Origin: an uncultured Nitrospiraceae bacterium
GTDB taxonomy: Bacteria; Nitrospirota; Thermodesulfovibrionia; Thermodesulfovibrionales; SM23-35
Assembly (NCBI GenBank): GCA_963727775.1
Contig: CAVSHB010000001.1
Location: 864,001-928,000, forward strand
Direction: 5' to 3'
DNA length: 64,000 bases
Below are positions 27,901-46,228 of this stretch, in pieces; within the stretch, counting starts at the first letter, position 1, and every line of letters starts with the position of its first letter. The notes below the pieces were generated by a model. That model was given only the letters and a program-made list of their open reading frames with translations, had not been told where the DNA came from and ran no database searches. Made by a program: the position numbers and the translations under genes.

Positions 27901-27976
27901 GGTCCCATCGTCTAGAGGCCTAGGACGTGGCCCTCTCAAGGCTAAAACACGGGTTCAAATCCCGTTGGGACCGCCA
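27901..27976 (+). tRNA. tRNA-Glu(CTC)
   Basis: Acceptor GGTCCCA/TGGGACC, anticodon loop CTCTCAA, GGTTCAAATCC, encoded CCA. Confidence 0.96.
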
Positions 27977-27990
27977 ATAAAATCAACAGG

Positions 27991-29076
27991 TTATATAGTT
28001 TCATTTCCTATTGCTCTGTTAACTGTAACGCTACTGTAACAGTTGGGGTCATCCGTTTTATTTAAGACTGAAATAGCGTCTCTCAGGTTTTCTACCGACA
28101 AGTGAGAGTATCTTTGCGTCATCCTGATATCCTTATGCCCGAGCAGCTTTGAAATTGTATGAAGGTCAATTCCTTTTTGTCTGAGATAGCTTGCGAAGGT
28201 GTGGCGGAAATCATGAAACCTGAAGTTTTCAATTCGTGCGACCTTGCACACTTTTCTTATCGCTCTTTGAAGCTTAACAGGATAAATCCCTTTTCCGGCA
28301 TCATGAAAAACGAGGTCTGTATCAACTCGCCTTATTTTTTGTAATGATATAAAGGTATCAAAGGCTTCTTGTGTAAGAGGTATCCCCAAATTTTCTTTGT
28401 TTTTCATTTGAGAACCGTCGATGCATATAAGGCGTGAAAAGACATTTACCTGCGGCCATGTTAGTCCGAGGATATTGGCCTCTCTAAGTCCTGTGTTCAG
28501 AGCTACAATGACCATAGGCTTTAGCCATGCCGGGGTCACCTGATTGTCAACCGCGTCAAAAAGGCGCTTGTATTCATCATCACTCAGAAATCTGATTCTT
28601 TCATTGTTGACTTTCGGCATTTCAACTTGAGATACAGGATTGTCTTTAACCCATTTCCATTTTCTTTCGGCAAGGTTAAACATCCTTCGGAGAAGTCCCA
28701 ATTCTTTTACTATAGTAGCAGGCATAGCTTTAGCAGCCCTATGTTTTTCATAACCTCCAATAAGCGTTTCTATCCTGTGCAATGGCGTATTTTCTCCGAA
28801 ATATTTTCCGAGATGTTTTAGGATACTTTTGTCTCTCGCTCGGTATTTCTTCTTGCAAAGATATTCACTCTCATACTTCTGAATCATTTCCTTGAAAGTC
28901 CTTTTCTTTGTGTGTGGATCAAACCACTTTCCTTCCACAATCTCAGTAATCCGTTTTGCATGAATCTTCTCCGCTAATTTCTTGTTTGCAGTTGTAGTAG
29001 ATTCATATATTCTCTCGCCGTTTACTGTAAAGAACATCCAGTAGAATTTGCTTCCGCACCGTTTATAAAGACCCAT
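27991..29076 (-). CDS. Tyrosine integrase
   Basis: TGLR, FHDFRHTFAS, LLGHKDIRMTQRY; adjacent to attL. Confidence 0.95.
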   Translation of the reverse strand: MGLYKRCGSKFYWMFFTVNGERIYESTTTANKKLAEKIHAKRITEIVEGKWFDPHTKKRTFKEMIQKYESEYLCKKKYRARDKSILKHLGKYFGENTPLHRIETLIGGYEKHRAAKAMPATIVKELGLLRRMFNLAERKWKWVKDNPVSQVEMPKVNNERIRFLSDDEYKRLFDAVDNQVTPAWLKPMVIVALNTGLREANILGLTWPQVNVFSRLICIDGSQMKNKENLGIPLTQEAFDTFISLQKIRRVDTDLVFHDAGKGIYPVKLQRAIRKVCKVARIENFRFHDFRHTFASYLRQKGIDLHTISKLLGHKDIRMTQRYSHLSVENLRDAISVLNKTDDPNCYSSVTVNRAIGNETI

Positions 29077-29319
29077 CTAAAACTGCCCTCCTTTCCTGGG
29101 TCTTCTATCTGTTGCAATATTATAATGTCTTTCTCCTGAGTTTTTACAGCCGTTAATCCAGTCTGATATTTCACCCTCATCGAACCGCAAGAGGCCATTG
29201 AGCTTGAAGCAAGGGATAACCCCTTGCTCCGCCCAAGAATAGACAGTGCTAGGCTTAGCCTTTATAAGCTCGGCGACCTCTTTGACGGTTAATATGCTTA
29301 ATAACTTGATTGAGCTCAT
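29077..29319 (-). CDS. Excisionase-like HTH protein
   Basis: LTVKEVAELI...STVYSW...IPCFKL...LRF; abuts the integrase. Confidence 0.88.
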   Translation of the reverse strand: MSSIKLLSILTVKEVAELIKAKPSTVYSWAEQGVIPCFKLNGLLRFDEGEISDWINGCKNSGERHYNIATDRRPRKGGQF

Positions 29320-29323
29320 GATA

Positions 29324-31564
29324 TTATCCGGGGTATTTATTCTGCTTTTTAATTGCCTCGACCAAATTCCTATTAATAAAGTTCATGGGGACACCATTCT
29401 CAGTGTGATTGTTACTTACTTCGAAATCGATGCCATAGGCGCTCAGATTCGGTTTAATCCGTTCCAAGGCGTTTCTTAATTTGTTGGTATGCCGTGGGAA
29501 GGTCGAATCATTCTTCGTCTCCACATGCTTTCGAAGCTTGTCATACGCTTCTTTGACAGTCCCTTGCCATATCTTCTTGGTTTTCATTAACTCAAGAACT
29601 GCTTGTGCCAATGAATCACTGTGAATTATTTCTTCATTCTGGTGATTAATATTTTCTTTATAAGCTTTTTTGAAATCTGAGTTCTTGTACCCCAGTGCCT
29701 CTGTAATAGCTACACCCCACTTCATGAAATCTGCCATACGTTCCAATTTTTTCACCTTCAGTGACGTATATATTTCTTTTGCTCTCGATAAAGTATCGAA
29801 CATAGCACCCAGTATGTAAGGACGGACTCTGTCAAACTTTCTCATCATTTCACGCAACCCTTCACGCTTGTCGGGCGTAATGCGGTTGATTTGGAATAAC
29901 AACGTCCTATCCATAAGGTCAGGCCTAGAAACGAGGAGGTTGATGCCGTTTATCCCGATACAACGTAAGAGCTTATAAGTAATATCTTCATCGTCCGTAT
30001 AGAGTTGTCTCATTGAAATACCTGCTCCCGTGCAAGCTTGTGATAAAAGATCTGAGAGCTCGTCTTTGCAGCTAGAAAGGTTATCGAACAAGCAAAGATA
30101 ATGGTGCTCAATTTTCCGTATTGTCTCTCTTCTCTTGTCTGGCAATATTAAATCGTCATTATTTGAAGGGTCTATCAGTTCCCTCAAGACCTTAAATATT
30201 ACCGTTTTGCCACTCCCTTGCGGCCCATAGATATGTATGACAGGGTGTGGTATGCCTGGAACTAAACAGGATACTAGATACACCAGAAAAAGCAGTTTCG
30301 AATTTGTGCACTTTATATTTACAAACTTAAAAATGTCATTAATGTTTCCTTTTCTCTTGGGCATTACTTGAGCTTTCTGATGCTGGTAATGTTTGAAGAG
30401 AATAGTGGTGTGATCCTTTATCTTCCAACCGGTTTTCTTGGTTACTACTACCTTACCTTCACCCATGTCATAGTAGAATACATTGCCCCGTTCCGCGACC
30501 CTATTATAAAGGCTAAAATGCGATCCGTTGTTCGACGCGATGGCAGCCACGGCGTGTATGGCAGTGTTAATCTCATTTTTGCCCGCTACTTTTTTGTGTC
30601 TATTCATATATTCATTGATTATCCAGCGTTTGAAGGCAACACTTTCGATCTGATAGACAACTCTGTTGACGCACGCACAAGGTTTCCCTGCATCATCAAC
30701 GAACAAGCTATAATTACGAGCAATTTTAATCATCTTGTCAGCAGTGCTATTGCCCGACGAGATTGGGACACTTTCAGTATTTTCGGTTTTATATCTCATA
30801 GCACTCGTCACCTTTTCTTCTACGATCTTGTCTTCCATAGGTGGCTCACAGAACAACTCATTCATTGTGCGCAGAATAGTCAGTATCCCATCGTGGCCCA
30901 ACCTAAGTTGATGCTTTTCATTCCATTCCCGTAACCTACATGCGTGTTTATATAGATTGATATCTCTTGATCCTTCATCTATCGGGATGTCCGTTGCAGC
31001 ATCTTCTTCCTTGGCTTGACGTACAGGCAGGAAGATATCGGGCATATAATCAAGGTCTCTTACATCTGGAATATATTTAACTTTTCGATTTTCTGTATTC
31101 TCTGTAGGTAAAACTATATATCCTTTCTTAGCAAGCTTGTAGTCAATGACAAAGCCACCAGTCGTTAGTGTATGCGTCGTTTGTGTTTCGACCTTTTTAC
31201 TGTCCTTGAATATGAAATGATAGCCGTTCGGTGTTCTTATTCCAATAAAATTTCTGTGATTCTTTTTCATCGCTTTATACAATTTTTTCCCAACTTTAAA
31301 ATTGTCTACATCAACAAGAATGTACCCATCAGGAATGACTAAACCTAACCATCCTTTAGCCTTTATCCAGTATGAAGCTTCATTTTCGCTTGTAGGCTCC
31401 CATTTACCGTAAGAATTCTTCGCTACGTTATAGTTTTCGTTGTTATAGTAGCCACGTAGTTTAATTATCTTGCAGTTTTTTGCTCCAAAGTAGTCGATAA
31501 GATCGTTGTAACTGAATGAATCTTGACTTGTGTCTGCCCCTGTTCTCTTCTTTTCTTTTTTCAT
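29324..31564 (-). CDS. Primase-polymerase / PriCT / P-loop helicase replication protein
   Basis: LVDVD, RTPNGYHFIF, EGSRDINL (PriCT-like), Walker A GPQGSGKT, FDNLS, RQLYTD, DRT. Confidence 0.85.
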   Translation of the reverse strand: MKKEKKRTGADTSQDSFSYNDLIDYFGAKNCKIIKLRGYYNNENYNVAKNSYGKWEPTSENEASYWIKAKGWLGLVIPDGYILVDVDNFKVGKKLYKAMKKNHRNFIGIRTPNGYHFIFKDSKKVETQTTHTLTTGGFVIDYKLAKKGYIVLPTENTENRKVKYIPDVRDLDYMPDIFLPVRQAKEEDAATDIPIDEGSRDINLYKHACRLREWNEKHQLRLGHDGILTILRTMNELFCEPPMEDKIVEEKVTSAMRYKTENTESVPISSGNSTADKMIKIARNYSLFVDDAGKPCACVNRVVYQIESVAFKRWIINEYMNRHKKVAGKNEINTAIHAVAAIASNNGSHFSLYNRVAERGNVFYYDMGEGKVVVTKKTGWKIKDHTTILFKHYQHQKAQVMPKRKGNINDIFKFVNIKCTNSKLLFLVYLVSCLVPGIPHPVIHIYGPQGSGKTVIFKVLRELIDPSNNDDLILPDKRRETIRKIEHHYLCLFDNLSSCKDELSDLLSQACTGAGISMRQLYTDDEDITYKLLRCIGINGINLLVSRPDLMDRTLLFQINRITPDKREGLREMMRKFDRVRPYILGAMFDTLSRAKEIYTSLKVKKLERMADFMKWGVAITEALGYKNSDFKKAYKENINHQNEEIIHSDSLAQAVLELMKTKKIWQGTVKEAYDKLRKHVETKNDSTFPRHTNKLRNALERIKPNLSAYGIDFEVSNNHTENGVPMNFINRNLVEAIKKQNKYPG

Positions 31565-31667: not shown

Positions 31668-32669
31668 TTAAATGTCGGTTAGTTCTGATAGGCGCATGTC
31701 AATATACTTTTTGAAGTATGTCTCGTTTTGTAACCTGTCTTCAATGTTTTTGATCCGGCGCCTTTTTAGTCCAGGCTTATTCTTTTTTGTATACTTTGGA
31801 ATTGAACCTTTTTTTGATGGAGGATTCTGGGGGTATTCGAGCTCAGGAAATATGTCTCCAGGTGCTAAGTCATATTTCTCTGCAAGTAGCTTTATTTTTA
31901 GTGTTGCTTCCTTCTGCTTTATTCTTTTCATAAGTGCTCCAAAAATCAAACTGTGTATGGAATGGGCGAGACAACAAAGGCCCTTAAGTTTCTCTCGCTC
32001 ATAGAAGGTTTTGGGGAGTTTTATATTTTTTTTAACACTGAGCCATTTATTGAAAACTCTATAAGACTTCTCAAGTACTTTCTTCTGCTGATTAGCGCCT
32101 CTGCCTTTTTTATAGTCCATATAATATGAGGCGTCATCCCCAAAAACTTCCTTCACAGTATTTAAAAAAATAGTGTTGCCTTCCTTCTCGGCTTTCTTGA
32201 CTTCATAAAAGAAACCTTCAAGAGTGATCATGAGGGTGTCAATTTCATCCATCATTATTTGAATAGCTGCCTGTGAGAAGTCTCTGAGACAGAACCCTGA
32301 AACCCGATGAAGCGGAAACGTTTGTTCTTCAGACGAATATAGGTATGGGTGAAAATTGATAGCCAAAAGTTGAAGTGCGGAATATTCTGACGCAGACATA
32401 TTAAAGTCTTTTTGCCATTTCTGAAGGGTTTTTCCACTCATTATCGCATTGGCTTCTGCAAAGATATCGTGATCCCATCCTTTGCTCCTACCTTTGTATT
32501 TCTTCTTTTTAGTGTAATAATTATCGGACAGAGAATCTTCTCTTTTTTTTCTTTTAGCCGGGACTTCAGGAAGATTTTGCAGACAACTATTGCACTCTTT
32601 GCCATGGCAAAAAATTGATTTGTTTACATTTAGTTTCACTACCGGGCAGAAAATGATATCCTTTCCCAT
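31668..32669 (-). CDS. Hypothetical protein of the element
   Basis: 333-aa ORF with N-terminal Cys cluster (C...C...CNSC); co-oriented with the primase. Confidence 0.7.
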   Translation of the reverse strand: MGKDIIFCPVVKLNVNKSIFCHGKECNSCLQNLPEVPAKRKKREDSLSDNYYTKKKKYKGRSKGWDHDIFAEANAIMSGKTLQKWQKDFNMSASEYSALQLLAINFHPYLYSSEEQTFPLHRVSGFCLRDFSQAAIQIMMDEIDTLMITLEGFFYEVKKAEKEGNTIFLNTVKEVFGDDASYYMDYKKGRGANQQKKVLEKSYRVFNKWLSVKKNIKLPKTFYEREKLKGLCCLAHSIHSLIFGALMKRIKQKEATLKIKLLAEKYDLAPGDIFPELEYPQNPPSKKGSIPKYTKKNKPGLKRRRIKNIEDRLQNETYFKKYIDMRLSELTDI

Positions 32670-32926: not shown

Positions 32927-33100
32927 ATTAATGACTGAAGATACTGAAGATACTTTTTTAAATAAATATAAAATGTTTTTTTAATAACAATTTTATTAAA
33001 AATATAAAAGTATCTTCAGTATCTTCAGTCATTAATCCAATATAAAATGCATAAAGAAGCTGTAGAAAGAATATCTAAAAAGTATCTTCAGTATCTTCAG
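32927..33100. repeat. Iteron-like inverted repeat, candidate replication origin
   Basis: Perfect 31-bp IR 32927-32957 / 33006-33036 around an AT-rich spacer; third partial copy 33078-33100; unit GTATCTTCA x2. Confidence 0.8.
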
Positions 33101-33386: not shown

Positions 33387-34442
33387 ATGAAAGATTTGAT
33401 AGGCGTGGAACTATTTTCAGGAGCTGGGGGCATGTCCTTGGGTGCAATGCAAGCAGGGATTGAAACCCAGTTGGCAGTCGAAGTGAATTGCTACGCGGCC
33501 GCAACGTTTGCTTCAAATATAAAAAACACAACTGTTGTTGTGGATGATATTAAAAATATCAAAGAGTTTAAGTTGAAAAAAAAGGCCCCAATAATTTTAT
33601 TCGGGGGGCCACCATGCCAGGGATTTTCAAGTTCCAATCAGAAAAACAGAACTGTTGAAAATCCTCGGAACTGGTTGTTTAAGGAATTTATGCGATGTGC
33701 TAAGCTGGTTATGCCTGACTGGATTGTTATAGAAAATGTTAAAGGTTTAGCAGAAATGCAAAACGGTTTCTTTCTTAAAGAGATATTTAAAAATTTATAC
33801 AAGATAGGTTATACAATTAATTTCAAAGTCTTAAATGCAGAAGATTATGGTGTGCCTCAAAAGCGAGAAAGAGTTTTTATTGTTGCTTCTCTTCACGGAA
33901 TTGCTTTCAGTTTTCCTCCTCCGATGAATGACAGACCTATCATTGTTAAAGATGCAATTTCTGATCTGCCTGAGCTAGCAAATGGAACCATGGAATATAA
34001 AATGGATTACCGGTCTTCTCCGTTTTCTAATTATGCAAAAATAATGCGAGGGAGAAAAAAAAAATCTCTTAACAATTATGTTACAAAAAACTCTGATTTA
34101 GTTGTCAAAAGATATGAACATATTCCGCAGGGAGGTAATTGGCAGAATATCCCGCAAGAATTAATGTTGAATTACAAAGACCACACAAGGTGTCATCATG
34201 GTATTTACAGACGGTTATCTGAAAACCAACCATCTGTTGTGATAGGGAATTATAGGAAGAATATGCTTATCCATCCCACGCAGAACAGAGGGCTTTCAGT
34301 GCGAGAGGCAGCAAGACTTCAGTCTTTCCCTGATTGGTTTGAGTTTAAAGGTCCTTTAATAAGCCAGCAACAGCAAGTTGGGGATGCTGTTCCACCGCTA
34401 TTAGCTAAAGAAGTATTCAAAAGAATCATTGAATCGAGTTGA
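33387..34442 (+). CDS. DNA (cytosine-5)-methyltransferase 1
   Basis: LFSGAGG, GGPPCQGFS, ENVKG, QKRERVF, REAARLQSFPD, GDAVPP. Confidence 0.95.
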   Translation: MKDLIGVELFSGAGGMSLGAMQAGIETQLAVEVNCYAAATFASNIKNTTVVVDDIKNIKEFKLKKKAPIILFGGPPCQGFSSSNQKNRTVENPRNWLFKEFMRCAKLVMPDWIVIENVKGLAEMQNGFFLKEIFKNLYKIGYTINFKVLNAEDYGVPQKRERVFIVASLHGIAFSFPPPMNDRPIIVKDAISDLPELANGTMEYKMDYRSSPFSNYAKIMRGRKKKSLNNYVTKNSDLVVKRYEHIPQGGNWQNIPQELMLNYKDHTRCHHGIYRRLSENQPSVVIGNYRKNMLIHPTQNRGLSVREAARLQSFPDWFEFKGPLISQQQQVGDAVPPLLAKEVFKRIIESS

Positions 34443-34443
34443 T

Positions 34444-35487
34444 ATGGAGTTAAATAGAAAGACACTTGAAGCTTGGTTAGAAGATCCGCCCGCTGAAGCG
34501 TTTTTCTTAGGAAGGAAGGTGGCTTTTTATTCTTATTATAGGACCCTTAAGGATTATCTTGATAGAGAAGTACATAAATGGGTTACTATAGGTGCGAATC
34601 TGAAAGATCCAAGTATTGTATTAAATGATCATGGACCAGACCATATAGTTTCAGTAATTGATAGGGCAAGCCTCTTGGTTTCTTGTAGAGACTGCACCTT
34701 AAATGCATTAGAAGTTTATCTCCTATTAGTGTCTATCCAGCTTCACGATACAGGAAATATTTTTGGCAGATATGAACATGAACTAAATGCAGAAAAAGTT
34801 ATGTCTGAAGCGGAGAAAAGATGTGGTCGCGATCAAATTGAAATCGCTATTGTCAAAAAAATAGTCGGAGCACATGGAGGAAGAATCAGAGGGATATCAA
34901 ATGGTTATGATAAAATTGGCTTTCTAAGTCCTTTGGAACCTATTATGAATGAAACGATTAGGCTTCAATCGATAGCAGGCATACTGAGGTTTGCTGACGA
35001 ATTAGCTGATGACAAGAGTAGAGCTAACATAATTTCATTAAAGAGCGGTGATATGCCTAAGAAGAGCGAGGTATTTCATGCCTATTCTTCTTCCTTAGAC
35101 TCTGTTTTAATTAAACACGAAGACAAAGCTGTTGAATTGTATTTTAAAATTCCAAAGGATTTTACAACTCGGAAGTTTGGCAAATTAGATGATGAGGTAT
35201 ACCTATTGGATGAAATATACAACAGAATCATGAAAATGCATCTGGAAAGAATATATTGCATGAGGTTTTGTAAGCGCCTAATAGATATTGAAAAAATTTG
35301 TGTATCAATTATTTTTTATGACAATTATATCGATGATATTTTCCCTCGCATAAGTTTTCAACTTAGTGAGTGGGGTTATCCTCAGGCGAACGAAGATGGC
35401 ATATACGGCCTGTGCCCATCTTTGAAAAATGCGGAAGGTGAAAAAATCAATGGTGAATATGTGAAAAACAAAATATTAGGTGCCTAA
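34444..35487 (+). CDS. HD-superfamily phosphohydrolase (conflict-effector type)
   Basis: DHGPDH, LHDTGN, HE, AHGG, LRFADEL; ATG immediately after the methylase stop. Confidence 0.8.
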   Translation: MELNRKTLEAWLEDPPAEAFFLGRKVAFYSYYRTLKDYLDREVHKWVTIGANLKDPSIVLNDHGPDHIVSVIDRASLLVSCRDCTLNALEVYLLLVSIQLHDTGNIFGRYEHELNAEKVMSEAEKRCGRDQIEIAIVKKIVGAHGGRIRGISNGYDKIGFLSPLEPIMNETIRLQSIAGILRFADELADDKSRANIISLKSGDMPKKSEVFHAYSSSLDSVLIKHEDKAVELYFKIPKDFTTRKFGKLDDEVYLLDEIYNRIMKMHLERIYCMRFCKRLIDIEKICVSIIFYDNYIDDIFPRISFQLSEWGYPQANEDGIYGLCPSLKNAEGEKINGEYVKNKILGA

Positions 35488-35489
35488 AA

Positions 35490-37262
35490 ATGAAAAGTCC
35501 GTTTGAATATACGACTCCTGAGGCTATTCCGGCAAAGGACATTATCGATTTGTTTGTGCCTGTTTTCGGTGAGTATTACAATGTCCCGAATGTAGGCCAT
35601 ACGTTTATAAATGGGCCAAGAGGCTGCGGAAAAAGCATGATGTTCAGATACATGGGGCCTGACTGCCAAATCCTTGCTTGCAATAAGAAGATTTGTGAAT
35701 TAGATTATTTTGCTATTCACATACCAATAAAAGAAGGACAGCTAGATAAGACCGACCTTAGCCTACTTGAGGACAAGCATGGAGAATCGCTCCTTAATGA
35801 ACACTTCATGGTAGTAAATTTTGCAATAAAGATTTTCGAGAAGTTAGGTGATACAGAAATTGATAGTTCTGTTGTAAACATTGATGCATTAAGAACTTTT
35901 TACAATGATTCTTTTTTGAAACTATTGAATTATGCAAGGTGGGATAGAAGTATTGCATTACCTTCAGAAGTAGAGAATTGCAAGTCTTTTTTTTACCATA
36001 TGAAAGAAGTATGCTCAGAGATAAACAGAGAGTTTACGCAGAACTTTATATATAAGTTAGTAGGTGTGACAACTCCTTTGCCTTATGAGGGGCCAATCTG
36101 TTTGTTTTCTGATTTTTTATTGCCAATTCTAACTAAAATAAAAGAATTGCCTTTTATGCCTAAAGGGCCTATTTATTTGTTGATTGATGATGCTGATAAC
36201 CTAAATAGAATTCAAACCAAGATTCTTAATACGTGGGTATCAATGCGTACCTCTAAATCTGTTAGTTTTAAGATATCAACACAGTTAAATTATAAAACCT
36301 ATAGGACAATTAATAATTCAAGGATTGATACACCACATGATTATTCGGAGATTAACATATCAGATATTTATACTGCGAAGAAAAGTTTATATAAAGCAAG
36401 AGTTAAAGAGGCCGTTGAAAGGCGATTAAATAAGTTTGGGTATAGAGATGTCGGAGCAGAGTCATTTTTCCCACAGGACATGGAGCAGGATAAAAAGATA
36501 AAATCGATATTTATTGAATACCAGAATAAATATGAAGGGAAGCGAGGCTATGATTATGCATATCGATATGCCAGACCGGATTTTATGAAATCTTTAAAGG
36601 GTAATTTAGATACATTTAGTTATGCCGGTTTTGACAACTTGGTGAACATATCTTCTGGGATAATGAGGCACTTTATTGATTTTGCAAATCATATGTATGC
36701 CCACCAAATTGCAAAAACAGGGGGAAAAGATTTTACTTATATCGAACCGAGCATTCAGGATTACGAAGTTAAAGAATATTCAAATTGGTTTTTTGATGAA
36801 AATTTTTCAAAGTTGAGAGGTGATGCTGAAAATACAACTGAAACAATTAATGCTTTCGATAAACTCCGTAATTTAATTGAGGCCTTGGGACAAACCTTTA
36901 ACTTAATTCTTTTTTCTGATGCGACGGAGAGAAGGGTTTTTTCTTTTGCACTGCAAAATGATCCTGATGCTGAGCTTAGGAGAATTTTAAACTTGGGTGT
37001 TCAGAATGGATACTTTCAAAAATCACTTATTGGAAATAAAATGGGAACTGGGAAAGCAAGACTTTACATTTTAAATAGATTGCTGGCTCCTCATTTCAAG
37101 CTTGATCCGACGAGTTTTGCTGGGTACAAATTTGTCACGTGTGATGTCTTGAAAGAAGCATTATATAAACCCAATACTGTTGTTGGGCGAGTAAAGACAC
37201 AAGGGGTTGATAATGTTTTTGAAGATCCGCAACATTCTCTCTTCAGAGAGAATGAATTATGA
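35490..37262 (+). CDS. ORC/CDC6-like P-loop ATPase
   Basis: Walker A GPRGCGKS, Walker B LLIDDADNL, SSGIMRHFI, C-terminal LNRLLAPHFKL. Confidence 0.8.
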   Translation: MKSPFEYTTPEAIPAKDIIDLFVPVFGEYYNVPNVGHTFINGPRGCGKSMMFRYMGPDCQILACNKKICELDYFAIHIPIKEGQLDKTDLSLLEDKHGESLLNEHFMVVNFAIKIFEKLGDTEIDSSVVNIDALRTFYNDSFLKLLNYARWDRSIALPSEVENCKSFFYHMKEVCSEINREFTQNFIYKLVGVTTPLPYEGPICLFSDFLLPILTKIKELPFMPKGPIYLLIDDADNLNRIQTKILNTWVSMRTSKSVSFKISTQLNYKTYRTINNSRIDTPHDYSEINISDIYTAKKSLYKARVKEAVERRLNKFGYRDVGAESFFPQDMEQDKKIKSIFIEYQNKYEGKRGYDYAYRYARPDFMKSLKGNLDTFSYAGFDNLVNISSGIMRHFIDFANHMYAHQIAKTGGKDFTYIEPSIQDYEVKEYSNWFFDENFSKLRGDAENTTETINAFDKLRNLIEALGQTFNLILFSDATERRVFSFALQNDPDAELRRILNLGVQNGYFQKSLIGNKMGTGKARLYILNRLLAPHFKLDPTSFAGYKFVTCDVLKEALYKPNTVVGRVKTQGVDNVFEDPQHSLFRENEL

Positions 37263-38218
37263 TAAAAATGCAACTTGGCCAGATTACAAAATCTATAAAA
37301 GACAAGATTGATGTGTTTATTTGTTCTTCAAGCTTTGAAGAACGGTGTTTTGCTGTTCCTGCCGAAGCAGCAATGCTGAACATTACTTCTAAGTTAATTT
37401 TTTATATATCAGATTTAGATGATATCATTGCTCAAAATGCCGATAAACTTGTGGCAGTTCTTGGTGATGCTTCACGAAAAATTGAGCTGCAAATATGTGA
37501 CCCAGCCCTATCACTTAAAAACATGAGTAATGCTTTGAGTGAAGTCTTTTCTGGAGAGAACCCACAATGCTATTTATTGGATATAACGACTTTTACACAT
37601 GAGGGCTTATTAATGCTGTTTAAGCTGCTTCAACTCAGATTGAAAAAAAATGATAGATTATTTTTATGTTATAACGGTGCTAAAGAATATTCATATAACG
37701 AGTCAACTCCTGAGAAGAAATGGCTTTCAAAAGGTGTCAAGACAGTTAGGTCAATATTAGGATATCCTGGATTATTAGACCCATCCAAAAAAAATCATTT
37801 GGTTATTTTGTTTGGCTTTGAGAGAGAACGCACAATGCGGCTGATTGATATCTTCGAGTACGATTTAGTTTCTCTTGCATTTGGGAGCAAAAATGCCTCA
37901 ATAAATGAAAACCATCAGCAGTTAAATGAAACTCGTCATGAAGAATTACTTAAACTTTATCCAAGCGCACAAAAGTTCGAAGTTTCTCTCATTGACGCCA
38001 GCGAAACAAAAGCACAACTCCTCACATATATTGGAGAATTTTCTGAATACAATACAGTCATTGTCCCCATGAATAATAAGATATCATCGCTAGGTGCAGG
38101 ATTAGCGGCGATAGAAAATCCTGAAATTCAGTTATGTTATGTCACTGCTAATCAGTATAATCTCGAAGGTTATTCCCACCCAAGCGACGAATGCTACTTA
38201 TTTGAAGTAACATTTTAG
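37259..38218 (+). CDS. Uncharacterised alpha/beta protein, possibly tandem CARF-like Rossmann domains
   Basis: SSSFEERC...LLDITTFT...CY and LFGFERER...IVPMNNKISSLG...CY; ATGA overlap with the ATPase. Confidence 0.6.
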   Translation: MIKMQLGQITKSIKDKIDVFICSSSFEERCFAVPAEAAMLNITSKLIFYISDLDDIIAQNADKLVAVLGDASRKIELQICDPALSLKNMSNALSEVFSGENPQCYLLDITTFTHEGLLMLFKLLQLRLKKNDRLFLCYNGAKEYSYNESTPEKKWLSKGVKTVRSILGYPGLLDPSKKNHLVILFGFERERTMRLIDIFEYDLVSLAFGSKNASINENHQQLNETRHEELLKLYPSAQKFEVSLIDASETKAQLLTYIGEFSEYNTVIVPMNNKISSLGAGLAAIENPEIQLCYVTANQYNLEGYSHPSDECYLFEVTF

Positions 38219-38365: not shown

Positions 38366-38794
38366 TCAAATATTACTTCCTTTTCTTCTCTTGATCACAG
38401 CAAGAACCTTGGAAACACACACGTCAGTTCTTCTTGAAATTGTGTCGCCCCAAAAGCGTAATACAATCCATCCATTTTTTCTTAGGTATCTATTAACTCT
38501 TTTGTCTCTTTCGATATTATTCTCAATCTTTTTATGCCAAAATGCTTTGTTCGATTTTATATTTTGTTTTGCTCTGCTCCAATCCTTTCCATGCCAGAAT
38601 TCACTGTCACAAAAGATAGCTATTCTTAAAGACACCAATGCAATATCTGGAGTTCCTTTTATCCTCCGATAGTTTCTTCTATACCTCAAACCGTTAGACC
38701 ATAATGCCCTAGCAAGCGTATTTTCAATAATCGTATTGCAACCCCTGATAGCCTGCATGTTCTTTCTTCGATGCTCTTTTGATAAGTTGTCCAT
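38366..38794 (-). CDS. vsr: Very-short-patch repair endonuclease Vsr
   Basis: RRKNMQAIR, GTPDI, FCDSEFWHG, FWHKKIENNIERD, GWIVLRFW; start taken at MDNLS. Confidence 0.93.
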   Translation of the reverse strand: MDNLSKEHRRKNMQAIRGCNTIIENTLARALWSNGLRYRRNYRRIKGTPDIALVSLRIAIFCDSEFWHGKDWSRAKQNIKSNKAFWHKKIENNIERDKRVNRYLRKNGWIVLRFWGDTISRRTDVCVSKVLAVIKRRKGSNI

Positions 38795-38895
38795 GAATAT
38801 TTTCACTTCTCCAATTTTAATAAATGGCTTTTGTGTTAAGTGATGATTGTGGTAGCATAGTACGTCATATTTTAATTATTGTGGAGTAAATACCA

Positions 38896-39549
38896 ATGGT
38901 TGTTCAAGATGATCGCAGAGAACAAGAGTTAATTGAACGCTTTAACCTTCAATATGTTGAGGGCAGATCAAGCACAGATGCAAAGCTTGAGTTGGATGGT
39001 CAAACAATTTACTTCGAACTTAAATCTACAACAACAGGGTCTGTCACGACAGTTCGTGACTTTGGGCCCGATCACATTAAAAAATGGCAAGGTAAGCACT
39101 GGCTTATTGGTATTTATAACAGCGATCAGATATTGCAACACTGCTTGTATGGTTCCCCAAGAGACATGGAACCATGGATTAAAAAAAAGGAGCAATATAT
39201 TGCATTAGATTTTAATTTAGCTCGGGTTACACCTCCGTTAATCACAGAAGAAACTATGTATGGCCTATTAGGCAAGAAAGAAGTTTATAGTCTTAAAGAT
39301 GCATTTCATATTCAAAAAAGACAGTATTCCAGACAAGACTATAACTCATTAATGGACGTGAAGACTGGTTATTCTCCAGCACGGATGCTACAGATTATCC
39401 GGGAGCGGTGTCAGTACGTTATGGAACGTGGGTCAACCCTTAATAATCCACATATCCCAAGTGCATATTTCAAAGGATGGGAACAAATTGCGCCGGGTGA
39501 TATTAATAAACTTCACGAAAAAATTCGTGTCTATCTACAAAATTCTTGA
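38896..39549 (+). CDS. Putative type II restriction endonuclease
   Basis: TDA...FELKS PD-(D/E)xK-like motif; lies between vsr and a convergent C5-methyltransferase. Confidence 0.65.
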   Translation: MVVQDDRREQELIERFNLQYVEGRSSTDAKLELDGQTIYFELKSTTTGSVTTVRDFGPDHIKKWQGKHWLIGIYNSDQILQHCLYGSPRDMEPWIKKKEQYIALDFNLARVTPPLITEETMYGLLGKKEVYSLKDAFHIQKRQYSRQDYNSLMDVKTGYSPARMLQIIRERCQYVMERGSTLNNPHIPSAYFKGWEQIAPGDINKLHEKIRVYLQNS

Positions 39550-40785
39550 TAGTGCTTTAGCAATATTATATGCAACGGGAGGCGCAACTGAATTACCGAT
39601 AACTCCGATTGCCATATAAACGGGACAATCAAACTTCCAATAACTCGGAAATCCTTGTATAACTGCACAGTCCTCAACTGACAACCTAAAGTGGTTGTTT
39701 GTCGGTGGAAATAATCTTGCTTCTTCTCTATTTCTTGCAACGCCATTCGGCCATATTTGTAGCTTATCCCATTTCCGCAGTGCTGCTGTGCTACTAAGAA
39801 TGGATGTTGTATGTCTTGGCCCTGTCAATCCGCTACGTAATGTTGGAGCAAGCGAGTCATATCCGATTGAAGGTAATCCTAATGCCTCTCTAACCCCCAT
39901 GCATCTCTCAAGATTATCTGCTGAAGAATCTGCAAATAAGGTCAATGCTGCATCTGCTCTGTCTTCCAAAAAGCGACTTGCACTATGAGTAGGCTGTGGT
40001 TGTTTGAATTGTTTTGAAATATATCTCTTATTTGTCCCTACAAAGAAGATTCTTCTCCTTACTTGTGGAACGCCAAAATCATACGCATTAAGTCTAATAA
40101 TTGAAATGTCATAGATAATTTCCAATGGTTTTAAAATTACGCTTGATACATAATCCTTGAATTGCTTACTACCTAATGAAGGAACATTCTCGGCAACAAA
40201 ACATAATGGCTCTGCCTCAAGAACAGCACGAACAAATTCTGGGAACATATCTCTACTATCATTTTTGCCCAGTTGTTTGCCTGCTGTTGAAAAAGGCTGG
40301 CAAGGTGGACCTCCATGAATAACATTGACTTTTCCCCTATACTTCTTCCAATTGACTTTTCTGACATCACCCTTCTCCCCAGAATAAACGTTAATACTCG
40401 GATGATTATTCGTTAATATTTCAGCCCCAATTTCTAATATTTCGTATGAAGCAATATGTGTAAACCCTGCTAATTCAAATCCTATATCTAAGCCTCCACA
40501 GCCACTATATAATGAAATCGCTGTAAGTCCTTTCTTCTTAATCTGTTTCATAACATCTTCTGGTTTGAATAGGGGCATATTTATATCATGAATAGGTGAC
40601 GGCCCTTCTCCATTCAGAGCTTTTTTCTTTAGGCTGGCAGAGGACTTAGACCTGTTACTGTAAACTTCTCTTTCTTTATCGGTCAACGACCATCCATTAT
40701 ACCAAGGAGCTTCAGTGCCTCGATAATAATGTTCCAAGACCGCTTTTGATTTGTTGGTTTTTTGTTTTTTCATCTCTTTTATCAT
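39535..40785 (-). CDS. DNA (cytosine-5)-methyltransferase 2
   Basis: LYSGCGG, GGPPCQPFS, ENV, QVRRRIF, QGFP, IGNSVAPP. Confidence 0.95.
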   Translation of the reverse strand: MIKEMKKQKTNKSKAVLEHYYRGTEAPWYNGWSLTDKEREVYSNRSKSSASLKKKALNGEGPSPIHDINMPLFKPEDVMKQIKKKGLTAISLYSGCGGLDIGFELAGFTHIASYEILEIGAEILTNNHPSINVYSGEKGDVRKVNWKKYRGKVNVIHGGPPCQPFSTAGKQLGKNDSRDMFPEFVRAVLEAEPLCFVAENVPSLGSKQFKDYVSSVILKPLEIIYDISIIRLNAYDFGVPQVRRRIFFVGTNKRYISKQFKQPQPTHSASRFLEDRADAALTLFADSSADNLERCMGVREALGLPSIGYDSLAPTLRSGLTGPRHTTSILSSTAALRKWDKLQIWPNGVARNREEARLFPPTNNHFRLSVEDCAVIQGFPSYWKFDCPVYMAIGVIGNSVAPPVAYNIAKALSRIL

Positions 40786-41077: not shown

Positions 41078-41662
41078 ATGTTGCCCATATTAAGGAGCAA
41101 AAAAGACCTAACAATTGCATTCAGTCAGAAGCTTCCAAAATATTTCCATAAGCACGAGATCGATGCAATCCTTGATACCGTCAAGCATAATGACAAGTAT
41201 GCTCTCTTGATAAACTTGTTATGGCAAACGGGTGCAAGGGTTTCGGAGATTCTAAATCTCAAGGTCGGGGACATAGATTTTCATAGCAAGGCATTACGAA
41301 TAATTACTCTAAAACAAAAGAACCACCCACAGCGAGCACTTCCAATACAAGGAACACTTCTTGGACAATTAGGCGCGTATATCGCTCTGAAACAGCTTCA
41401 AAAAGACGCCTATTTATTGAAGTTAACAAGACAGAGAGCTCACCAAATAATAATGGATGCTGTTCTAAAGGCTGGCTTTGACAAAGAAAGAGCCCATCCT
41501 CACACATTTAGGCACTCGTTTGCGGTGTTTTCAGTGCTGTCGGGAGTTCCAATTCTGGTAGTAAAAAATTGGTTAGGGCACAGTAATATCCAAAGTACCC
41601 TTGTTTATATGCAAGTACTGGGGAGTGATACGAGGAACTTTTACGAAGGTCTTCAATTCTGA
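41078..41662 (+). CDS. Small tyrosine recombinase (catalytic domain only, resolvase-like)
   Basis: TGARVSE, HPHTFRHSFA, LGHSNIQSTLVY; 194 aa. Confidence 0.9.
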   Translation: MLPILRSKKDLTIAFSQKLPKYFHKHEIDAILDTVKHNDKYALLINLLWQTGARVSEILNLKVGDIDFHSKALRIITLKQKNHPQRALPIQGTLLGQLGAYIALKQLQKDAYLLKLTRQRAHQIIMDAVLKAGFDKERAHPHTFRHSFAVFSVLSGVPILVVKNWLGHSNIQSTLVYMQVLGSDTRNFYEGLQF

Positions 41663-41808: not shown

Positions 41809-42660
41809 TTAATTGAGTTTTCTTAAATCATCCTGATGCTGTTTTTCTATCATCTCTTTTTCATTTCTCTCTTTTCGGTTTCGAGATTCATAAATATCAT
41901 GACTTATTGAGCTATAATAACTTTGCGGAATAATCAGTAAGAAACCGCGAACAGAAGTCAACACATCAGTAGTAGTTCTCTTAATAAGATATACATTCTC
42001 GTTATTCTGTCGCTTGAAGCATGTCACGGTCACCTTAACAGGTGGCATTTTAACATTCTTGGCATAGCCATACTCAACAAACCACGTATTCCCTTCTGCG
42101 GCGTTCTCAGATAAACTTTTGTAGACATCATCATAGCTGGATATATCCGTAAATGCCATTGCAAATTTATTTTTATAAAAGATGTAATAAACGTCATCTA
42201 AATAAATGGAATAAAACTCCTCCGGTATATCACTAAAATCTACTCCTCTAAGTCCCATAAAACTGGTTATTCCAGCACCTAAACACAAAGCAATAAGGTC
42301 GGCATCGTCTACATGCTGCTGGTCTAAGAAATATTTACCTTTCCATTGAGGATTGCCAGAACAATGCTTTATTTCTTTAAAGTTCTCAAATTCAACTCCC
42401 CAAGGCACCCCTTTATAGTTGCCACTTTTTTCTTCTACCTTTCTATCTTTTTCTGTAACCAAAGGTGAGTCGACAGGTGATCGTTTTTCTTGTTCCATTT
42501 GTTGCCAAGGTACCCAATGTTCTGTTTCCTTATTCCCAGTTTCTGTCTGCGACTGTTTACATGCAGTGAGACCTAAGAACATCATTGACGCACACAAAAC
42601 TGTAAGCATGAAATTACCATATGAGAAGAACCAGTTTTCTTTACCACAGTCTGTTTTCAT
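41809..42660 (-). CDS. Hypothetical lipoprotein
   Basis: Hydrophobic stretch ending in lipobox LTAC; start uncertain. Confidence 0.7.
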   Translation of the reverse strand: MKTDCGKENWFFSYGNFMLTVLCASMMFLGLTACKQSQTETGNKETEHWVPWQQMEQEKRSPVDSPLVTEKDRKVEEKSGNYKGVPWGVEFENFKEIKHCSGNPQWKGKYFLDQQHVDDADLIALCLGAGITSFMGLRGVDFSDIPEEFYSIYLDDVYYIFYKNKFAMAFTDISSYDDVYKSLSENAAEGNTWFVEYGYAKNVKMPPVKVTVTCFKRQNNENVYLIKRTTTDVLTSVRGFLLIIPQSYYSSISHDIYESRNRKERNEKEMIEKQHQDDLRKLN

Positions 42661-43114: not shown

Positions 43115-43164
43115 CTCTCAAGGCTAAAACACGGGTTCGAATCCCGTTGGGACCGCCAATAAAA
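43115..43164 (+). repeat. attR (duplicated tRNA-Glu 3' half)
   Basis: CTCTCAAGGCTAAAACACGGGTTCGAATCCCGTTGGGACCGCCAATAAAA; one mismatch versus 27933-27982. Confidence 0.95.
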
Positions 43165-43413
43165 ACAAAGGTTTACACGATTTTAGCCGGAACATTTTCA
43201 TCCGACCGTGAAGCAAACGCGAAGGTGAGTTTTGAGATGAGACTTCTTAACGAGTCCACATTGAGGTGCATAATGTAATTACAGAAATAGAAATTTAGAC
43301 TTGATCTTTATGAGACCTCAATTAGGAGATGTTAGATACATCTCCTTTTTCTTTAAGGTAGTAATTTGAATGATGAAGAAACAAGCGTGCGAGGAGCAAA
43401 GATACACTAATAC

Positions 43414-43899
43414 TCACTTTTCGTTGGCTTTTTTGAGAACTTCCTTATAGATTTTATCGCTCAGTCTGAAGTTTTTATGCTTGAGCTCATCAAGCAAAGG
43501 TTTGATCGAAGAGATTAGTCTGAGTTGTTTTGCCAACAATAAAATCCCGGCAAGCCCAATTATGTTGAACCCGGCAGAAGTTGCCGCAGTCCTGGCTCTC
43601 TCATCATCAATGATAAGCCAGTCAGCATTTAATTCCTTTCCAAGTACCAAGACCTCTGCTTCGCCCTGTCCAATTTCCGCAATAAACATTTCAACGGTAC
43701 GCCGATCTTTAATTGTCTTCCTTTTAATCCACTTAGAATTCAGTATTTCCTTGACTCCGGGCCTTCCTTTACCTCCGGTAACAACTTCATTGAAAACCGC
43801 ATCGGGAATGTAAACTTCTCCGCAGATTTGGTTTAGAAGCTCGATTTTTCTGATCTTGGCGAGCCCGATCAGGACAGTAGAATCGCAGACAACTTTCAA
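43414..43899 (-). CDS. PIN-domain protein (DUF3368-like)
   Basis: VVCDSTVLI, IPDAVFNEV, GEAEVL, IIDDERAR. Confidence 0.88.
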   Translation of the reverse strand: MKVVCDSTVLIGLAKIRKIELLNQICGEVYIPDAVFNEVVTGGKGRPGVKEILNSKWIKRKTIKDRRTVEMFIAEIGQGEAEVLVLGKELNADWLIIDDERARTAATSAGFNIIGLAGILLLAKQLRLISSIKPLLDELKHKNFRLSDKIYKEVLKKANEK

Positions 43900-44828
43900 C
43901 TTTTCAGAGCCTTCTTAAGCCTTTCCGAACTTTTCAACTCTTTCTCTAACTGTTCTTCGCTGTAATCTATGACGGCAACATTATTTTCCCCGAGAAACTC
44001 GATAAATTCCCACATCGAAAGACCTGATAATTCCGCAGATTTCCCCAGCGATAATATTTTGTCCTTATAGCATTTGAGGGCCAATAGTTTTTTTGTTTCC
44101 TTCGATATCATTTCTTTTGACAGACCATGAGAAGATAAGGTCTGGTAAAGGTCTTTCGGTAAATCTATAACCGCTTTTACTGCCATGACCGCCTCCAGTC
44201 TTTTAGTGAACCGATTTAATAAATCATAACATTTCACAAGAAAACTTAAAACACCTTTTGGTATTAAGAGTCCCGACTGAATAAAATTTCTTAGCTGGAT
44301 CTTTTTCCTGATTTCTTCTTTTATATTCTCTAACGGTATCATCAACCAATTAAACCCGAATGACATTGCATCACTCGATGCTTTTCTAATTCTTTCTCTA
44401 ACTTCGGTTTCTTCTCTGCCGGATGTATATTTATAGTAGGTCTCTTCCGAAGAGAAAATTTCAAACGCCTTCAAATAGTATTTGCTACTTTCTTCCTGCA
44501 TCATGTCTGCAAGCTCCAACATCAGTGCAAATATATTTTTCTCCTTCTTAACTTCTTTCCTTATTTCCCTTAATTGTTCCTCTTTTACTGGTTTATCCAT
44601 AACGATGCCTAAATCAATGAAAGCATCCTTAGCGGTATCACGTTCATATATCGATGCAAGACTCGGAAAGCCTTCAATTTCCAACGTCCTCAGATTCCTA
44701 TCGTATAACGCGAGATAGCCTTTATTTCCGGGGAGTTGGCTGATAGTGAGAAATTCTAAGTAGAATTTTATGAATTTATCAAAGGTAGGATCAATTTTTT
44801 CTTTCCAAGAACGGGTATTAGATGCCAT
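43896..44828 (-). CDS. Hypothetical domain in frame with a UPF0175-family antitoxin (internal start 44186)
   Basis: C-terminal LSLGKSAELSGLSMWEF; GGAGG RBS before the internal ATG 44186 (MAVKAV). Confidence 0.75.
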   Translation of the reverse strand: MASNTRSWKEKIDPTFDKFIKFYLEFLTISQLPGNKGYLALYDRNLRTLEIEGFPSLASIYERDTAKDAFIDLGIVMDKPVKEEQLREIRKEVKKEKNIFALMLELADMMQEESSKYYLKAFEIFSSEETYYKYTSGREETEVRERIRKASSDAMSFGFNWLMIPLENIKEEIRKKIQLRNFIQSGLLIPKGVLSFLVKCYDLLNRFTKRLEAVMAVKAVIDLPKDLYQTLSSHGLSKEMISKETKKLLALKCYKDKILSLGKSAELSGLSMWEFIEFLGENNVAVIDYSEEQLEKELKSSERLKKALKS

Positions 44829-45158
44829 GCCGAATTATATCAAATCTGAGATTAGCAGCGAAATTTAGTTTGCGGAGTACACCCCGCAAAAATCAGTATA
44901 TGATCCAAATAAATATATCAAAAAACTAACTATATAACTCTAACCAACAGGAATAAAAAAGAAAGCAATAAGACTTAATAGAACCCACAGGCAGAAAAAG
45001 AAGAAATGTCTACGGTCTGATTCTTCTCCAGGGTGGGGAATATCAAAGTACCGCCACTTATCAAGAAGGTTTTCAATAAAAAAGCCAATAGTAATTGTTA
45101 AACAGAAACCAGTAATAGCCCAGAAAGCTAACTTTTCAAAGAAAGTATGACACCCCGT

Positions 45159-45200
45159 TCTCAAGGCTAAAACACGGTTCGAATCCCGTTGGGATCGCCA
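45159..45200 (+). repeat. Third, degenerate tRNA-Glu 3' copy (older att site)
   Basis: TCTCAAGGCTAAAACAC-GGTTCGAATCCCGTTGGGATCGCCA; one deletion and one substitution versus attR. Confidence 0.9.
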
Positions 45201-45277
45201 ATTAAATCAAGCGGTTTACAGCGATATTGCGCATTCTCTCATTTCCGATTGTAGCCGATTTGTTTCACCTGATACAT

Positions 45278-46228
45278 CTACCCATGTTTCAATGTAATGA
45301 AAAAATCAGGTATGTATTCGTTAATTGTGCTTTTGATGTGTTTTTCCCATTTACCCGGTAGTGTGTCTAAATAGGATAAAGCTTTTTTAAGCATATCCGG
45401 ATTTTTCATTATTCCTCTTAAGAGACCGGCAGCCTGCATAAGGTCTTTCTCTTTTTTATCCTTTGTCTTTCTTTTCTGTGATACCAGAATTTTGTGGAAA
45501 GCTAATGTCCAAGGGTTCGGTACAAAATAAACATAATCCTCTTTCCCCATTTTTAAGGGTTGTTCAGACAACATCTGCAGGTACCGTAAAGGAGTTGCTT
45601 TTATTTTTAACGCACGTATAGGTACAGCTTTGTCAGAACCCTTGCCTTTTTCAGGTGTCAGAAACTCAACCTTAAATATACCGTTTGTAAAGTAGGTGGA
45701 ACCATCTGGAGCGAACCCTATCGAAAAACCCATAGGTTTTAGCATTGATTCAACATCGGTTTCTTTTCCCTTATACGGGATATTCAGCATAAAATCTATA
45801 TCCTGGGTCTTAATTGTGGGCAGAGTAAATCCTAGTTCATCTTGCATAACAGGCATACAGTAAGAGCCGATGAGAATTGATTTAATTCCGTGCTGAGAGA
45901 ATATTTTTATTATTTCTACGGCAGTAACCTTCTGTGTATTAATTGCCTTTGCTATAACACGAATATTGCCCAGGATTTCTTTTTTCTGTTTTTCCAGTAA
46001 CTGTCTTCTATTGATAGCCTCCAGAAGTTCAGAGGGCACCGCACCGCCCAACGAAACGGACTTTACCTTCCTGCCCTCCCTCCACTGCCGGTAATAGTAT
46101 GTTGATTTGCCGATTTTTTTTGCAGAGATGTTTCCAGCAGGTAATTCCTTGATATCTTCATTTATCCGGGCAAATTCTTTGATAAAGTATATATAGTTTT
46201 CCTGTAGGGTTTTCTCCACGACGCTCAT
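45278..46228 (-). CDS. Nucleotidyltransferase-fold protein (GSU2403-like) with N-terminal extension
   Basis: ILIGS, KTQDIDF, VEFLTP, LAFHKILVS, KKEKDL. Confidence 0.75.
   Translation of the reverse strand: MSVVEKTLQENYIYFIKEFARINEDIKELPAGNISAKKIGKSTYYYRQWREGRKVKSVSLGGAVPSELLEAINRRQLLEKQKKEILGNIRVIAKAINTQKVTAVEIIKIFSQHGIKSILIGSYCMPVMQDELGFTLPTIKTQDIDFMLNIPYKGKETDVESMLKPMGFSIGFAPDGSTYFTNGIFKVEFLTPEKGKGSDKAVPIRALKIKATPLRYLQMLSEQPLKMGKEDYVYFVPNPWTLAFHKILVSQKRKTKDKKEKDLMQAAGLLRGIMKNPDMLKKALSYLDTLPGKWEKHIKSTINEYIPDFFITLKHG

Follow-up and report, generated by a model that had tools for sequence, protein, structure and literature searches.

A methylase-coupled four-gene cassette with an HD enzyme, an ORC/Cdc6-like ATPase and a tandem-CARF protein: a predicted sliding-clamp tether in a putative defence locus of an uncultured Nitrospiraceae bacterium

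DNA methylation is coupled to restriction by an ATPase of the ORC/Cdc6 clade in the bacteriophage exclusion (BREX) systems, according to the available portion of one account (PMC12839542). In MANTIS (Gao_RL, or BREX-related type 2) an ATPase of the same clade is described, in the accessible part of the source, as loading the methylase and coupling methylation to restriction (10.64898/2026.09.23.753747), and in the predicted HINPO system (HEPN-iNTase-ParA-ORC/CDC6) an ORC-CDC6/STAND ATPase is proposed to sense invader DNA (10.64898/2026.10.19.760177, available in part). Replicating DNA can also be found through the β sliding clamp: conjugative plasmids in the course of replication are located in this way by the TnsE protein of Tn7, and the accessible part of the same source notes that clamp motifs are common in mobile-element proteins (PMC3971601). 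How invader DNA is arrested by BREX-like systems, and why ATPases of the ORC/Cdc6 clade are needed for it, are questions only partly answered so far. The subject of this report is a compact four-gene relative of the BREX-like systems, carried on an integrated element in a 64,000-nucleotide stretch of DNA from an uncultured Nitrospiraceae bacterium (contig CAVSHB010000001.1, positions 864,001 to 928,000; the whole of this stretch is called the window below, and positions are counted within it). The cassette is real and widespread, its function is predicted, and the tail of its ATPase carries a predicted clamp-binding motif.

The four genes lie on the + strand in the order C5 cytosine DNA methyltransferase (33387..34442; 351 aa; PF00145, E=1.8e-67, and TIGR00675), HD-CE metal hydrolase (34444..35487; 347 aa from the ATG; PF24391), ORC-CDC6-like AAA+ ATPase (35490..37262; 590 aa; PF24389, Walker A and B intact) and tandem-CARF protein of the CARF6 family (37259..38218; 319 aa; PADLOC PDLC01917). 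They are spaced by 1 bp and 2 bp, and the ATPase and CARF genes then overlap in an ATGA. These coordinates bear out the tight, co-oriented layout reported in an initial annotation of the window, and the HD and Walker motifs claimed there, like those of a C5 methylase, are present in the sequences. The G+C content is 35.8% for the cassette, 37.2% for the carrier element and 45.0% for the genome. A scan for promoters and terminators stayed at chance level (23 vs 24 and 5 vs 3.8, respectively), and an Rfam scan recognized two tRNAs and nothing else. In the AT-rich gap upstream of the cassette (window 32927-33100) an imperfect inverted repeat of 54 nt accompanies a 23-24-nt unit that occurs three times, twice in direct and once in inverted orientation; the element may have its replication origin or an operator here.

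Conservation of the cassette was followed through 116 related loci retrieved with the ATPase (34 from GTDB, the best 80 of 218 from metagenomes, and 2 viral), which represent the HD-type subfamily only and include many near-duplicates, so that counts are also given after dereplication at 80%. The HD gene is directly upstream of the ATPase gene in 109/109 loci with room for it (58/58 dereplicated), and the CARF gene is directly downstream in 104/105 (58/58 dereplicated), the one exception (L068) having an integrase where the CARF gene is expected. When a methylase is counted as related at 45% or more identity to the window's copy, a cut-off of our own choosing, 56 of the 90 loci with room have one directly upstream and 9 more have one at another place in the locus; it is absent from the fetched flank in 20 loci that have MutL-Z1-DUF4420-AIPR genes and in 5 that have neither. 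The corresponding dereplicated counts (n=48) are 38 upstream, 2 elsewhere, 6 with MutL-Z1-DUF4420-AIPR genes only and 2 with neither. A re-check of nine GTDB genomes that lacked a methylase in the flank located a copy of 51-53% identity 8-9 kb downstream on the same contig in 4/9 and a methylase on another contig in 2; of the remaining three, the first has an upstream methylase of 44% identity, the second a broken one of 32%, and the third (1.7 Mb, with the locus at a contig end) none.

Five methylase matches at E<=1e-60 were obtained from 301 genomes of the phylum: the three best (at least 55% identity) come from the genomes that hold the HD-type ATPase, and the other two have 48% and 40% identity. 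Methylase distances track those of the other three genes, the trio, in 39 complete cassettes (Mantel rho 0.47-0.63, vs 0.53-0.62 within the trio), and 7-8 of the 14 supported splits of the methylase tree recur in the other trees against a shuffled maximum of 2, fewer than within the trio; the kin compared in these joint-inheritance statistics are not independent. This shows that the methylase and the trio travel as a unit, which does not in itself imply a function. The conserved, methylase-coupled unit that had been proposed for this locus is thus upheld by gene order and joint inheritance alike, as is its setting among anti-phage genes, since the related loci often stand beside defence genes. 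Type I restriction-modification (R-M), McrB-like and AbiGi genes each adjoin the trio in single loci. The cassette is found on plasmids too, and viral contigs yielded 2 loci with the cassette and 3 distant methylases. As a side observation, a small class I S-adenosylmethionine-dependent methyltransferase gene follows the CARF gene in 5/116 loci (L009:9778-10539, L012, L058, L062 and L091).

ATPases of the ORC-CDC6-like type are expected to carry a C-terminal winged-helix DNA-binding domain. The cassette's ATPase matches PF24389 at 328.9 bits (cut-off 27), its top matches in the Atlas are also PF24389, and it has a Walker A motif GPRGCGKS (residues 42-49) and a Walker B motif IDDAD (232-236). 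The initial annotation had these two motifs right and overlooked a third at the C-terminus, QHSLF (residues 581-585; 37230..37244, + strand), a predicted β-sliding-clamp-binding motif of the form QxxLF, which is given as the clamp-binding consensus in the accessible part of PMC12926913. Of 60 dereplicated full-length ATPase homologues, 36 have exact QxxLF within their last 22 residues and 46 a looser form (shuffled tails: mean 3.9, maximum 10), the homologues not being independent of each other. The exact motif is found in 0/68 HD, 0/72 CARF and 0/47 methylase proteins, in 1/285 other open reading frames (ORFs) and in 1/1499 internal ATPase windows. Its commonest residues are Q-L-S/T-L-F, and its median distance to the end of the protein is 4 residues. 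In the alignment of 39 cassettes Q581 is kept in 35/39, L584 in 33/39 and F585 in 37/39 rows, and in the twelve columns just before the motif, which form a poorly conserved linker, no residue is kept in more than 16/39. The motif recurs in 96/120 members of the PRTase/N6 subfamily, which is only ~20% identical to this ATPase (shuffled maximum 7), and related tails are seen in TIR- and kinase-fused PF24389 members. Because the motif is retained across ~20% identity behind a variable linker, the pattern argues for selection on the ATPase tail, and the ATPase is predicted to dock on the β sliding clamp through QxxLF. Archaeal PF24389 homologues, which would provide a natural control if a PCNA motif replaced QxxLF, were not identified in the searches, and no mention of a clamp motif in defence systems of this kind was found among the titles and opening parts of abstracts in the literature searched. 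Enterobacterial plasmids, many of them nearly identical to each other, also carry a distant PF24389-like ATPase: of 155 matching records, 129 are Klebsiella (hits H7-H41).

The methylase, which belongs to one clade across the related loci, carries the motifs FSGAGG, GGPPCQ and ENV and has a mean identity of 54% over the 39 cassette copies. Residues ~241-320 are among its best conserved; since this is the recognition region, its conservation suggests that the cassette methylases share one target sequence. By sequence, its closest solved relatives are eukaryotic DNMT1 (E~1e-43), then M.HaeIII and M.HhaI. Methylases of the same C5 clade close or lead runs of MutL-Z1-DUF4420-AIPR (Mza-like) genes adjoining the trio in L014-L017, L021, L077, L083 and L099. 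Thymidylate-synthase-family genes are present in 9/116 loci: a full-length gene overlaps the methylase start in six (L006:4032-4850, L008:4078-4872, L032:4032-4850, L046, L048 and L060), possibly from one ancestral event, and divergent members of the family lie downstream in L003, L040 and L102. Such neighbours may hint at a link to the pyrimidine pool.

The HD-CE protein belongs to PF24391 (86.4 bits, cut-off 27) with its HD ligands present, and H63, H67, H101, D102, H112, E133, H144, D185 and E186 are invariant in 31 aligned sequences. Six ligands, here in the order H...HD...H...H...D, denote a dinuclear HD site, a motif shared with HD nucleases such as Cas3, in the part available of a review of the superfamily (PMC8177086). 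The same portion of that review states that in HD phosphatases and deoxynucleoside triphosphatases (dNTPases) the first His is preceded, three positions earlier, by an arginine and the site is usually mononuclear (H...HD...D), that HD phosphodiesterases typically show HH at motif IV (H...HD...H...HH...D) but the YqeK diphosphatase a single His, and that an HD substrate is not readable from sequence. In the cassette protein the residues leading to H67 read N-D-H-G-x-D, with the invariant H63 and no Arg, so that the signature of phosphatases and dNTPases of the YfbR, SAMHD1 and dGTPase type is absent. A structural model (pLDDT, a per-residue confidence score, 89.6) was compared with solved folds by VIA-align, which returned PPX/GppA HD domains at Z 11.5-11.8 (best: root-mean-square deviation, rmsd, 3.2 over 166 aligned residues), class I phosphodiesterases at Z 10-10.8 (211-238 aligned), YhaM at 9.9 and a type I-D Cascade chain at 8.5; these matches are tied and none stands out. 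Foldseek with the HD-CE and CARF models gave no clear match, and a PDB sequence search with the HD and CARF profiles gave short or weak matches only. The HD-CE protein is likely to be a phosphodiesterase or nuclease effector. It had been suggested earlier that the HD enzyme depletes or cleaves nucleotides: because the phosphatase arginine is missing and the fold lies closer to phosphodiesterases, phosphodiester cleavage is favoured and depletion of nucleotides or dNTPs less so. The accompanying claim that no nuclease motif lies downstream of the methylase is not established, as the dinuclear HD motif is equally that of Cas3-type nucleases.

The fourth protein, first listed as unknown, turns out to be a tandem-CARF protein. 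It matches the CARF6 profiles of PADLOC (best PDLC01917, E=1.5e-75), and its model (pLDDT 94.1) aligns best with Can1 (6sce; Z 14.3, rmsd 3.6, 233 aligned) over both CARF domains, with further VIA-align matches to Can2, Csm6, Csa3, Card1 and SAVED domains. It has no effector domain. Its invariant residues (F26, E27, R29, D108, E115, G186, R191, N272, K274 and S276) cluster in the CARF loop motifs, and the protein is predicted from its modelled fold to be a nucleotide sensor. No linked cas or synthetase families, such as would accompany an effector of type III CRISPR or of a cyclic-oligonucleotide-based anti-phage signalling system (CBASS), were found in the window's element, among 57 neighbour proteins of the 34 GTDB loci or among 30 sister-locus proteins; the source genome has no SMODS match, and phage records gave no CARF match. 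The source genome encodes, on another contig (C4; L198:12684-15140), a Csm1/Cas10 of type III-A that carries a GGDD motif; it lies among transposase-like ORFs, and two of these have QxxLF-type tails at their ends. For the CARF6 family, whose members have no signal-making enzyme linked to them here, the cassette would provide a testable role, and a new nucleotide signal is possible.

Cassettes with a related ATPase indicate which parts are constant. In seven PF24389 loci from the same phylum CARF6 is directly downstream in 7/7 and a C5, N6 or N6/N4 methylase is adjacent in 6/7, while the effector slot, upstream or fused, is filled by HD-CE, PRTase-CE (3), TIR, a protein kinase or ParA. Since the partners vary while CARF6 and the methylase persist, the constant core appears to be ATPase, CARF6 and methylase, with an exchangeable effector; by analogy, a swapped effector slot of this kind is typical of immune modules. 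The locus with ParA (L179:3753-10450) has two uncharacterised genes followed by a ParA-PF24389 fusion, CARF6 and an N6 methylase, and may link the HINPO proposal to this cassette family.

From what was computed here (what the genes are, how they are ordered, conserved and jointly inherited, that their catalytic motifs are intact, and that the tail motif is enriched) we infer clamp binding, self-marking, a trigger, an HD substrate, a CARF ligand and defence itself, in a scheme that we favour tentatively and rate at somewhat under an even chance: the cassette would be a methylation-based defence system, BREX- or MANTIS-like, that surveys DNA from the clamp while it is being replicated. Self DNA would carry the mark of the C5 methylase; the ORC/Cdc6-like ATPase would dock on the β sliding clamp via its C-terminal QxxLF and inspect the DNA under replication; and replicating DNA without methylation would activate the HD enzyme, likely a phosphodiesterase, whose candidate substrates are DNA ends or single strands on the one hand and a small cyclic or oligomeric nucleotide on the other. 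The double-CARF protein would serve as a nucleotide-gated checkpoint on licensing of the HD enzyme. The clamp-type tail predicts that three residues tie immunity to the replisome, and each part of the cassette is open to point mutation. A wider proposal, which we hold to be somewhat unlikely, is that of a widespread immune family patrolling from the host clamp, in which the ATPase reads the methyl mark on replicating DNA under a CARF checkpoint and the effector (HD, PRTase, TIR or kinase) is exchangeable. In that case the event sensed would be replication as such, and no description of this principle for methylation-based defence was found in the literature searched.

Several observations weigh against the clamp-patrol scheme. 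It is important to emphasize that a clamp motif tells where a protein can sit and is not proof of methylation sensing. Moreover, 10/60 close ATPase homologues fit none of the tail patterns, the window's own copy has His at motif position 2, where Leu is commonest, and the motif is degenerate in the PRTase/C5 subfamily (1/118, loose form 13/118, with LPLF-like remnants). The HD-CE protein has one His at motif IV, as in YqeK, and not HH, its six ligands being present, and its fold matches are middling and tied, with PPX/GppA domains the best. One genome of the phylum has a 48% methylase and no trio within the 9 kb fetched. The trio stands beside MutL-Z1-DUF4420-AIPR genes in 27/116 loci, and because the same methylase clade is found at one end of that run where checked, the methylase may serve that system. 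The PRTase, TIR and kinase effectors of the sister cassettes do not cut DNA, so that a death or dormancy switch fits them better than restriction does.

Such a switch is the essence of an alternative that we consider somewhat unlikely, namely that the trio is a guard or back-up for 5-methylcytosine R-M: it would watch the methylase or an adjacent restriction system and, upon a phage block or a build-up of nucleotide debris, destroy a nucleotide or a signal molecule, so that the cell becomes dormant or dies. The exchangeable non-nuclease effectors agree with this, as do the 27/116 loci adjacent to MutL-Z1-DUF4420-AIPR genes and the single loci with type I R-M, McrB-like or AbiGi genes, the CARF protein that has neither an effector of its own nor a synthetase within the cassette, and the thymidylate-synthase-family genes in 9/116 loci, 6 overlapping the methylase start. 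In 38/48 dereplicated loci, however, the methylase heads the trio without the nuclease genes of the window or of Mza-like type (a count for which only some neighbouring genes were annotated); the clamp motif points to DNA as the site of action, and the HD protein lacks the phosphatase arginine. Carriage on an integrated mobile element and on plasmids would suit a different and improbable explanation, addiction or replication-coupled upkeep of methylation, in which the ATPase, bound to the clamp, loads the methylase again once the fork has passed, cells losing the element or the mark are harmed by the HD enzyme, and phage defence is incidental. The MANTIS ATPase is indeed described, in the part of the source available, as loading its methylase, and clamp motifs are reported in the accessible part of PMC3971601 to be common among mobile-element proteins; the swapping of effectors and the presence of a dedicated sensor of CARF fold, however, are immune-system features, and many of the loci lie among other defence genes.

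Plain multi-subunit R-M, with HD-CE as the nuclease, the ATPase as a loader and the tail motif as an incidental feature or a localisation aid, is in our estimate a little less probable again. It would account for the dinuclear HD motif, as in Cas3-type nucleases, and for the single conserved specificity region of the methylase, but it leaves unexplained the strong selection on the ATPase tail motif, the universal presence of the CARF gene and the non-nuclease effectors of the sister cassettes. Least probable by far is an ancillary effector of type III CRISPR or CBASS, whose CARF protein would read a cyclic oligoadenylate made elsewhere in the cell. The best CARF fold matches are the cA4 (cyclic tetra-adenylate)-binding Can1 and Can2, and the source genome does have Csm1/Cas10 with GGDD on another contig; against this, the scanned neighbours include no cas or synthetase family, the genome no SMODS match, and the strict link of the cassette is to a methylase.

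The cassette is cargo of a 15-kb element integrated at tRNA-Glu, the 3' end of which recurs as a direct repeat of 61 nt at the two boundaries of the element, with attL (27933..27993, +) within and just past tRNA-Glu(CTC) at 27901-27976 and attR (43115..43175, +) as a 92% identical copy; a third, weaker copy of the repeat lies at 45157-45217. These bounds, together with the G+C content of 35.8% vs 45.0%, confirm the placement of the cassette in the AT-rich cargo of a tRNA-integrated element. The core of the element (27991..31564, -) encodes a tyrosine integrase, an excisionase-like helix-turn-helix protein and a primase-polymerase/helicase (PF00589, PF12728 and PF09250 over cut-off; PriCT and helicase matches weak). 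Phage satellites of the PICI type combine an integrase/excisionase/primase core and att repeats with packaging or interference genes; core and repeats are present here, and no packaging gene was recognized. A 333-aa ORF of the core (31668-32669, -) has no Pfam match better than E=0.08 and none in PADLOC or NCBIfam.

Beyond the cassette, and in agreement with the R-M set first noted beside it, lie three genes: an accessory Vsr T:G mismatch nicking endonuclease (38366..38806, -; PF03852, TIGR00632), present in 18/116 related loci; a candidate PvuII-like restriction endonuclease of 217 aa (38896..39549, +; Atlas scores 0.96-0.97); and a second C5 methyltransferase (39535..40785, -; PF00145, E=5.3e-56), convergent with it. 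The PvuII-like assignment is a lead only: PF09225 is found in 17-32% of the members of its Atlas clusters, and the gene itself has no Pfam match. It is likely that this gene and the second methyltransferase form a type II R-M pair. As a cognate nuclease of the cassette the PvuII-like gene was rejected, being found in 0/116 related loci; it is separate cargo outside the cassette, which thus has no classical endonuclease co-inherited with its methylase as a type II R-M system would. Also within the element are a short integrase-family gene with the catalytic domain only (41078-41662) and a 283-aa lipoprotein-like ORF (41809-42660) with no Pfam match. A second small island, likely the remnant of an earlier insertion, extends from attR to the third tRNA-Glu repeat (43176-45217) and holds a PIN/DUF3368 and UPF0175 pair, and an NTP_transf_8 nucleotidyltransferase gene (45278-46228, -) lies just past the third att copy.

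Among described systems, no complete named one in PADLOC-DB 2.0 is matched by the cassette genes, in line with the first impression that no tested one has this layout: the HD protein has no profile there, and the ATPase matches only mad8 (E=0.0094 over 32 residues). It had also been stated that the HD and ATPase families were predicted computationally, and both are indeed catalogued in Pfam (PF24391, PF24389). With PRTase-CE (PF24390) and the CARF6 profiles of PADLOC they make up the catalogued families related to the cassette, and all three of its non-methylase genes are members of such families (HD-CE, ORC-CDC6-like and CARF6). These four families are reportedly owed to Burroughs and Aravind (2020, J Bacteriol) and Makarova et al. 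(2020, Nucleic Acids Research), where the four-gene layout may already be drawn; the supplements of those papers and of PMC12839542 may list this neighbourhood. A literature search, which left most subscription papers outside its reach, found no paper on the cassette or test of it.

In its parts the cassette resembles MANTIS as far as the accessible description of the latter goes: both have four genes, among them a DNA methylase and an effector to which an AAA+ ATPase of the ORC/Cdc6 clade is coupled. In MANTIS the methylase is of N6-adenine type, the ATPase belongs to DUF499 and the other two genes encode a small co-regulator and a PLD nuclease-helicase, whereas the cassette has a C5 methylase, a PF24389 ATPase, a tandem-CARF protein and an HD enzyme, with no helicase; as the Pfam assignments differ, membership in BREX-related type 2 was rejected. 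With BREX (BrxC, PglX, PglZ, BrxA/B) it shares the combination of a methylase, an ORC/Cdc6-clade ATPase and a metal-dependent enzyme of nuclease type, to judge from the available part of PMC12839542, but the methylase class, the effector fold and the sensor all differ. Among the profile matches listed for the four genes there is none to BREX, the methylase is of C5 and not of PglX adenine type, and membership was rejected here too. The CARF protein aligns over both Can1 domains (Z 14.3) and, unlike the type III CRISPR effectors Can1 and Can2, has no fused nuclease and no linked cas genes among the neighbours scanned. HINPO, in the part of its proposal available, likewise uses an ORC-CDC6-type ATPase, and assignment to it was rejected for want of HEPN, iNTase or ParA in the cassette. 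The nearest likeness for the ATPase tail is with Tn7 TnsE and the transposases of insertion sequences, described in the accessible literature as reaching replicating DNA through a short clamp motif that is often near the C-terminus; there the motif targets insertion, whereas the predicted motif of the cassette sits on a putative immune ATPase. Since the cassette class is already in domain catalogues it is not new as a class, and the predicted clamp tether is its new and testable part. By analogy, then, the cassette appears to work like BREX or MANTIS, as a member of neither, and is built from parts that are already catalogued.

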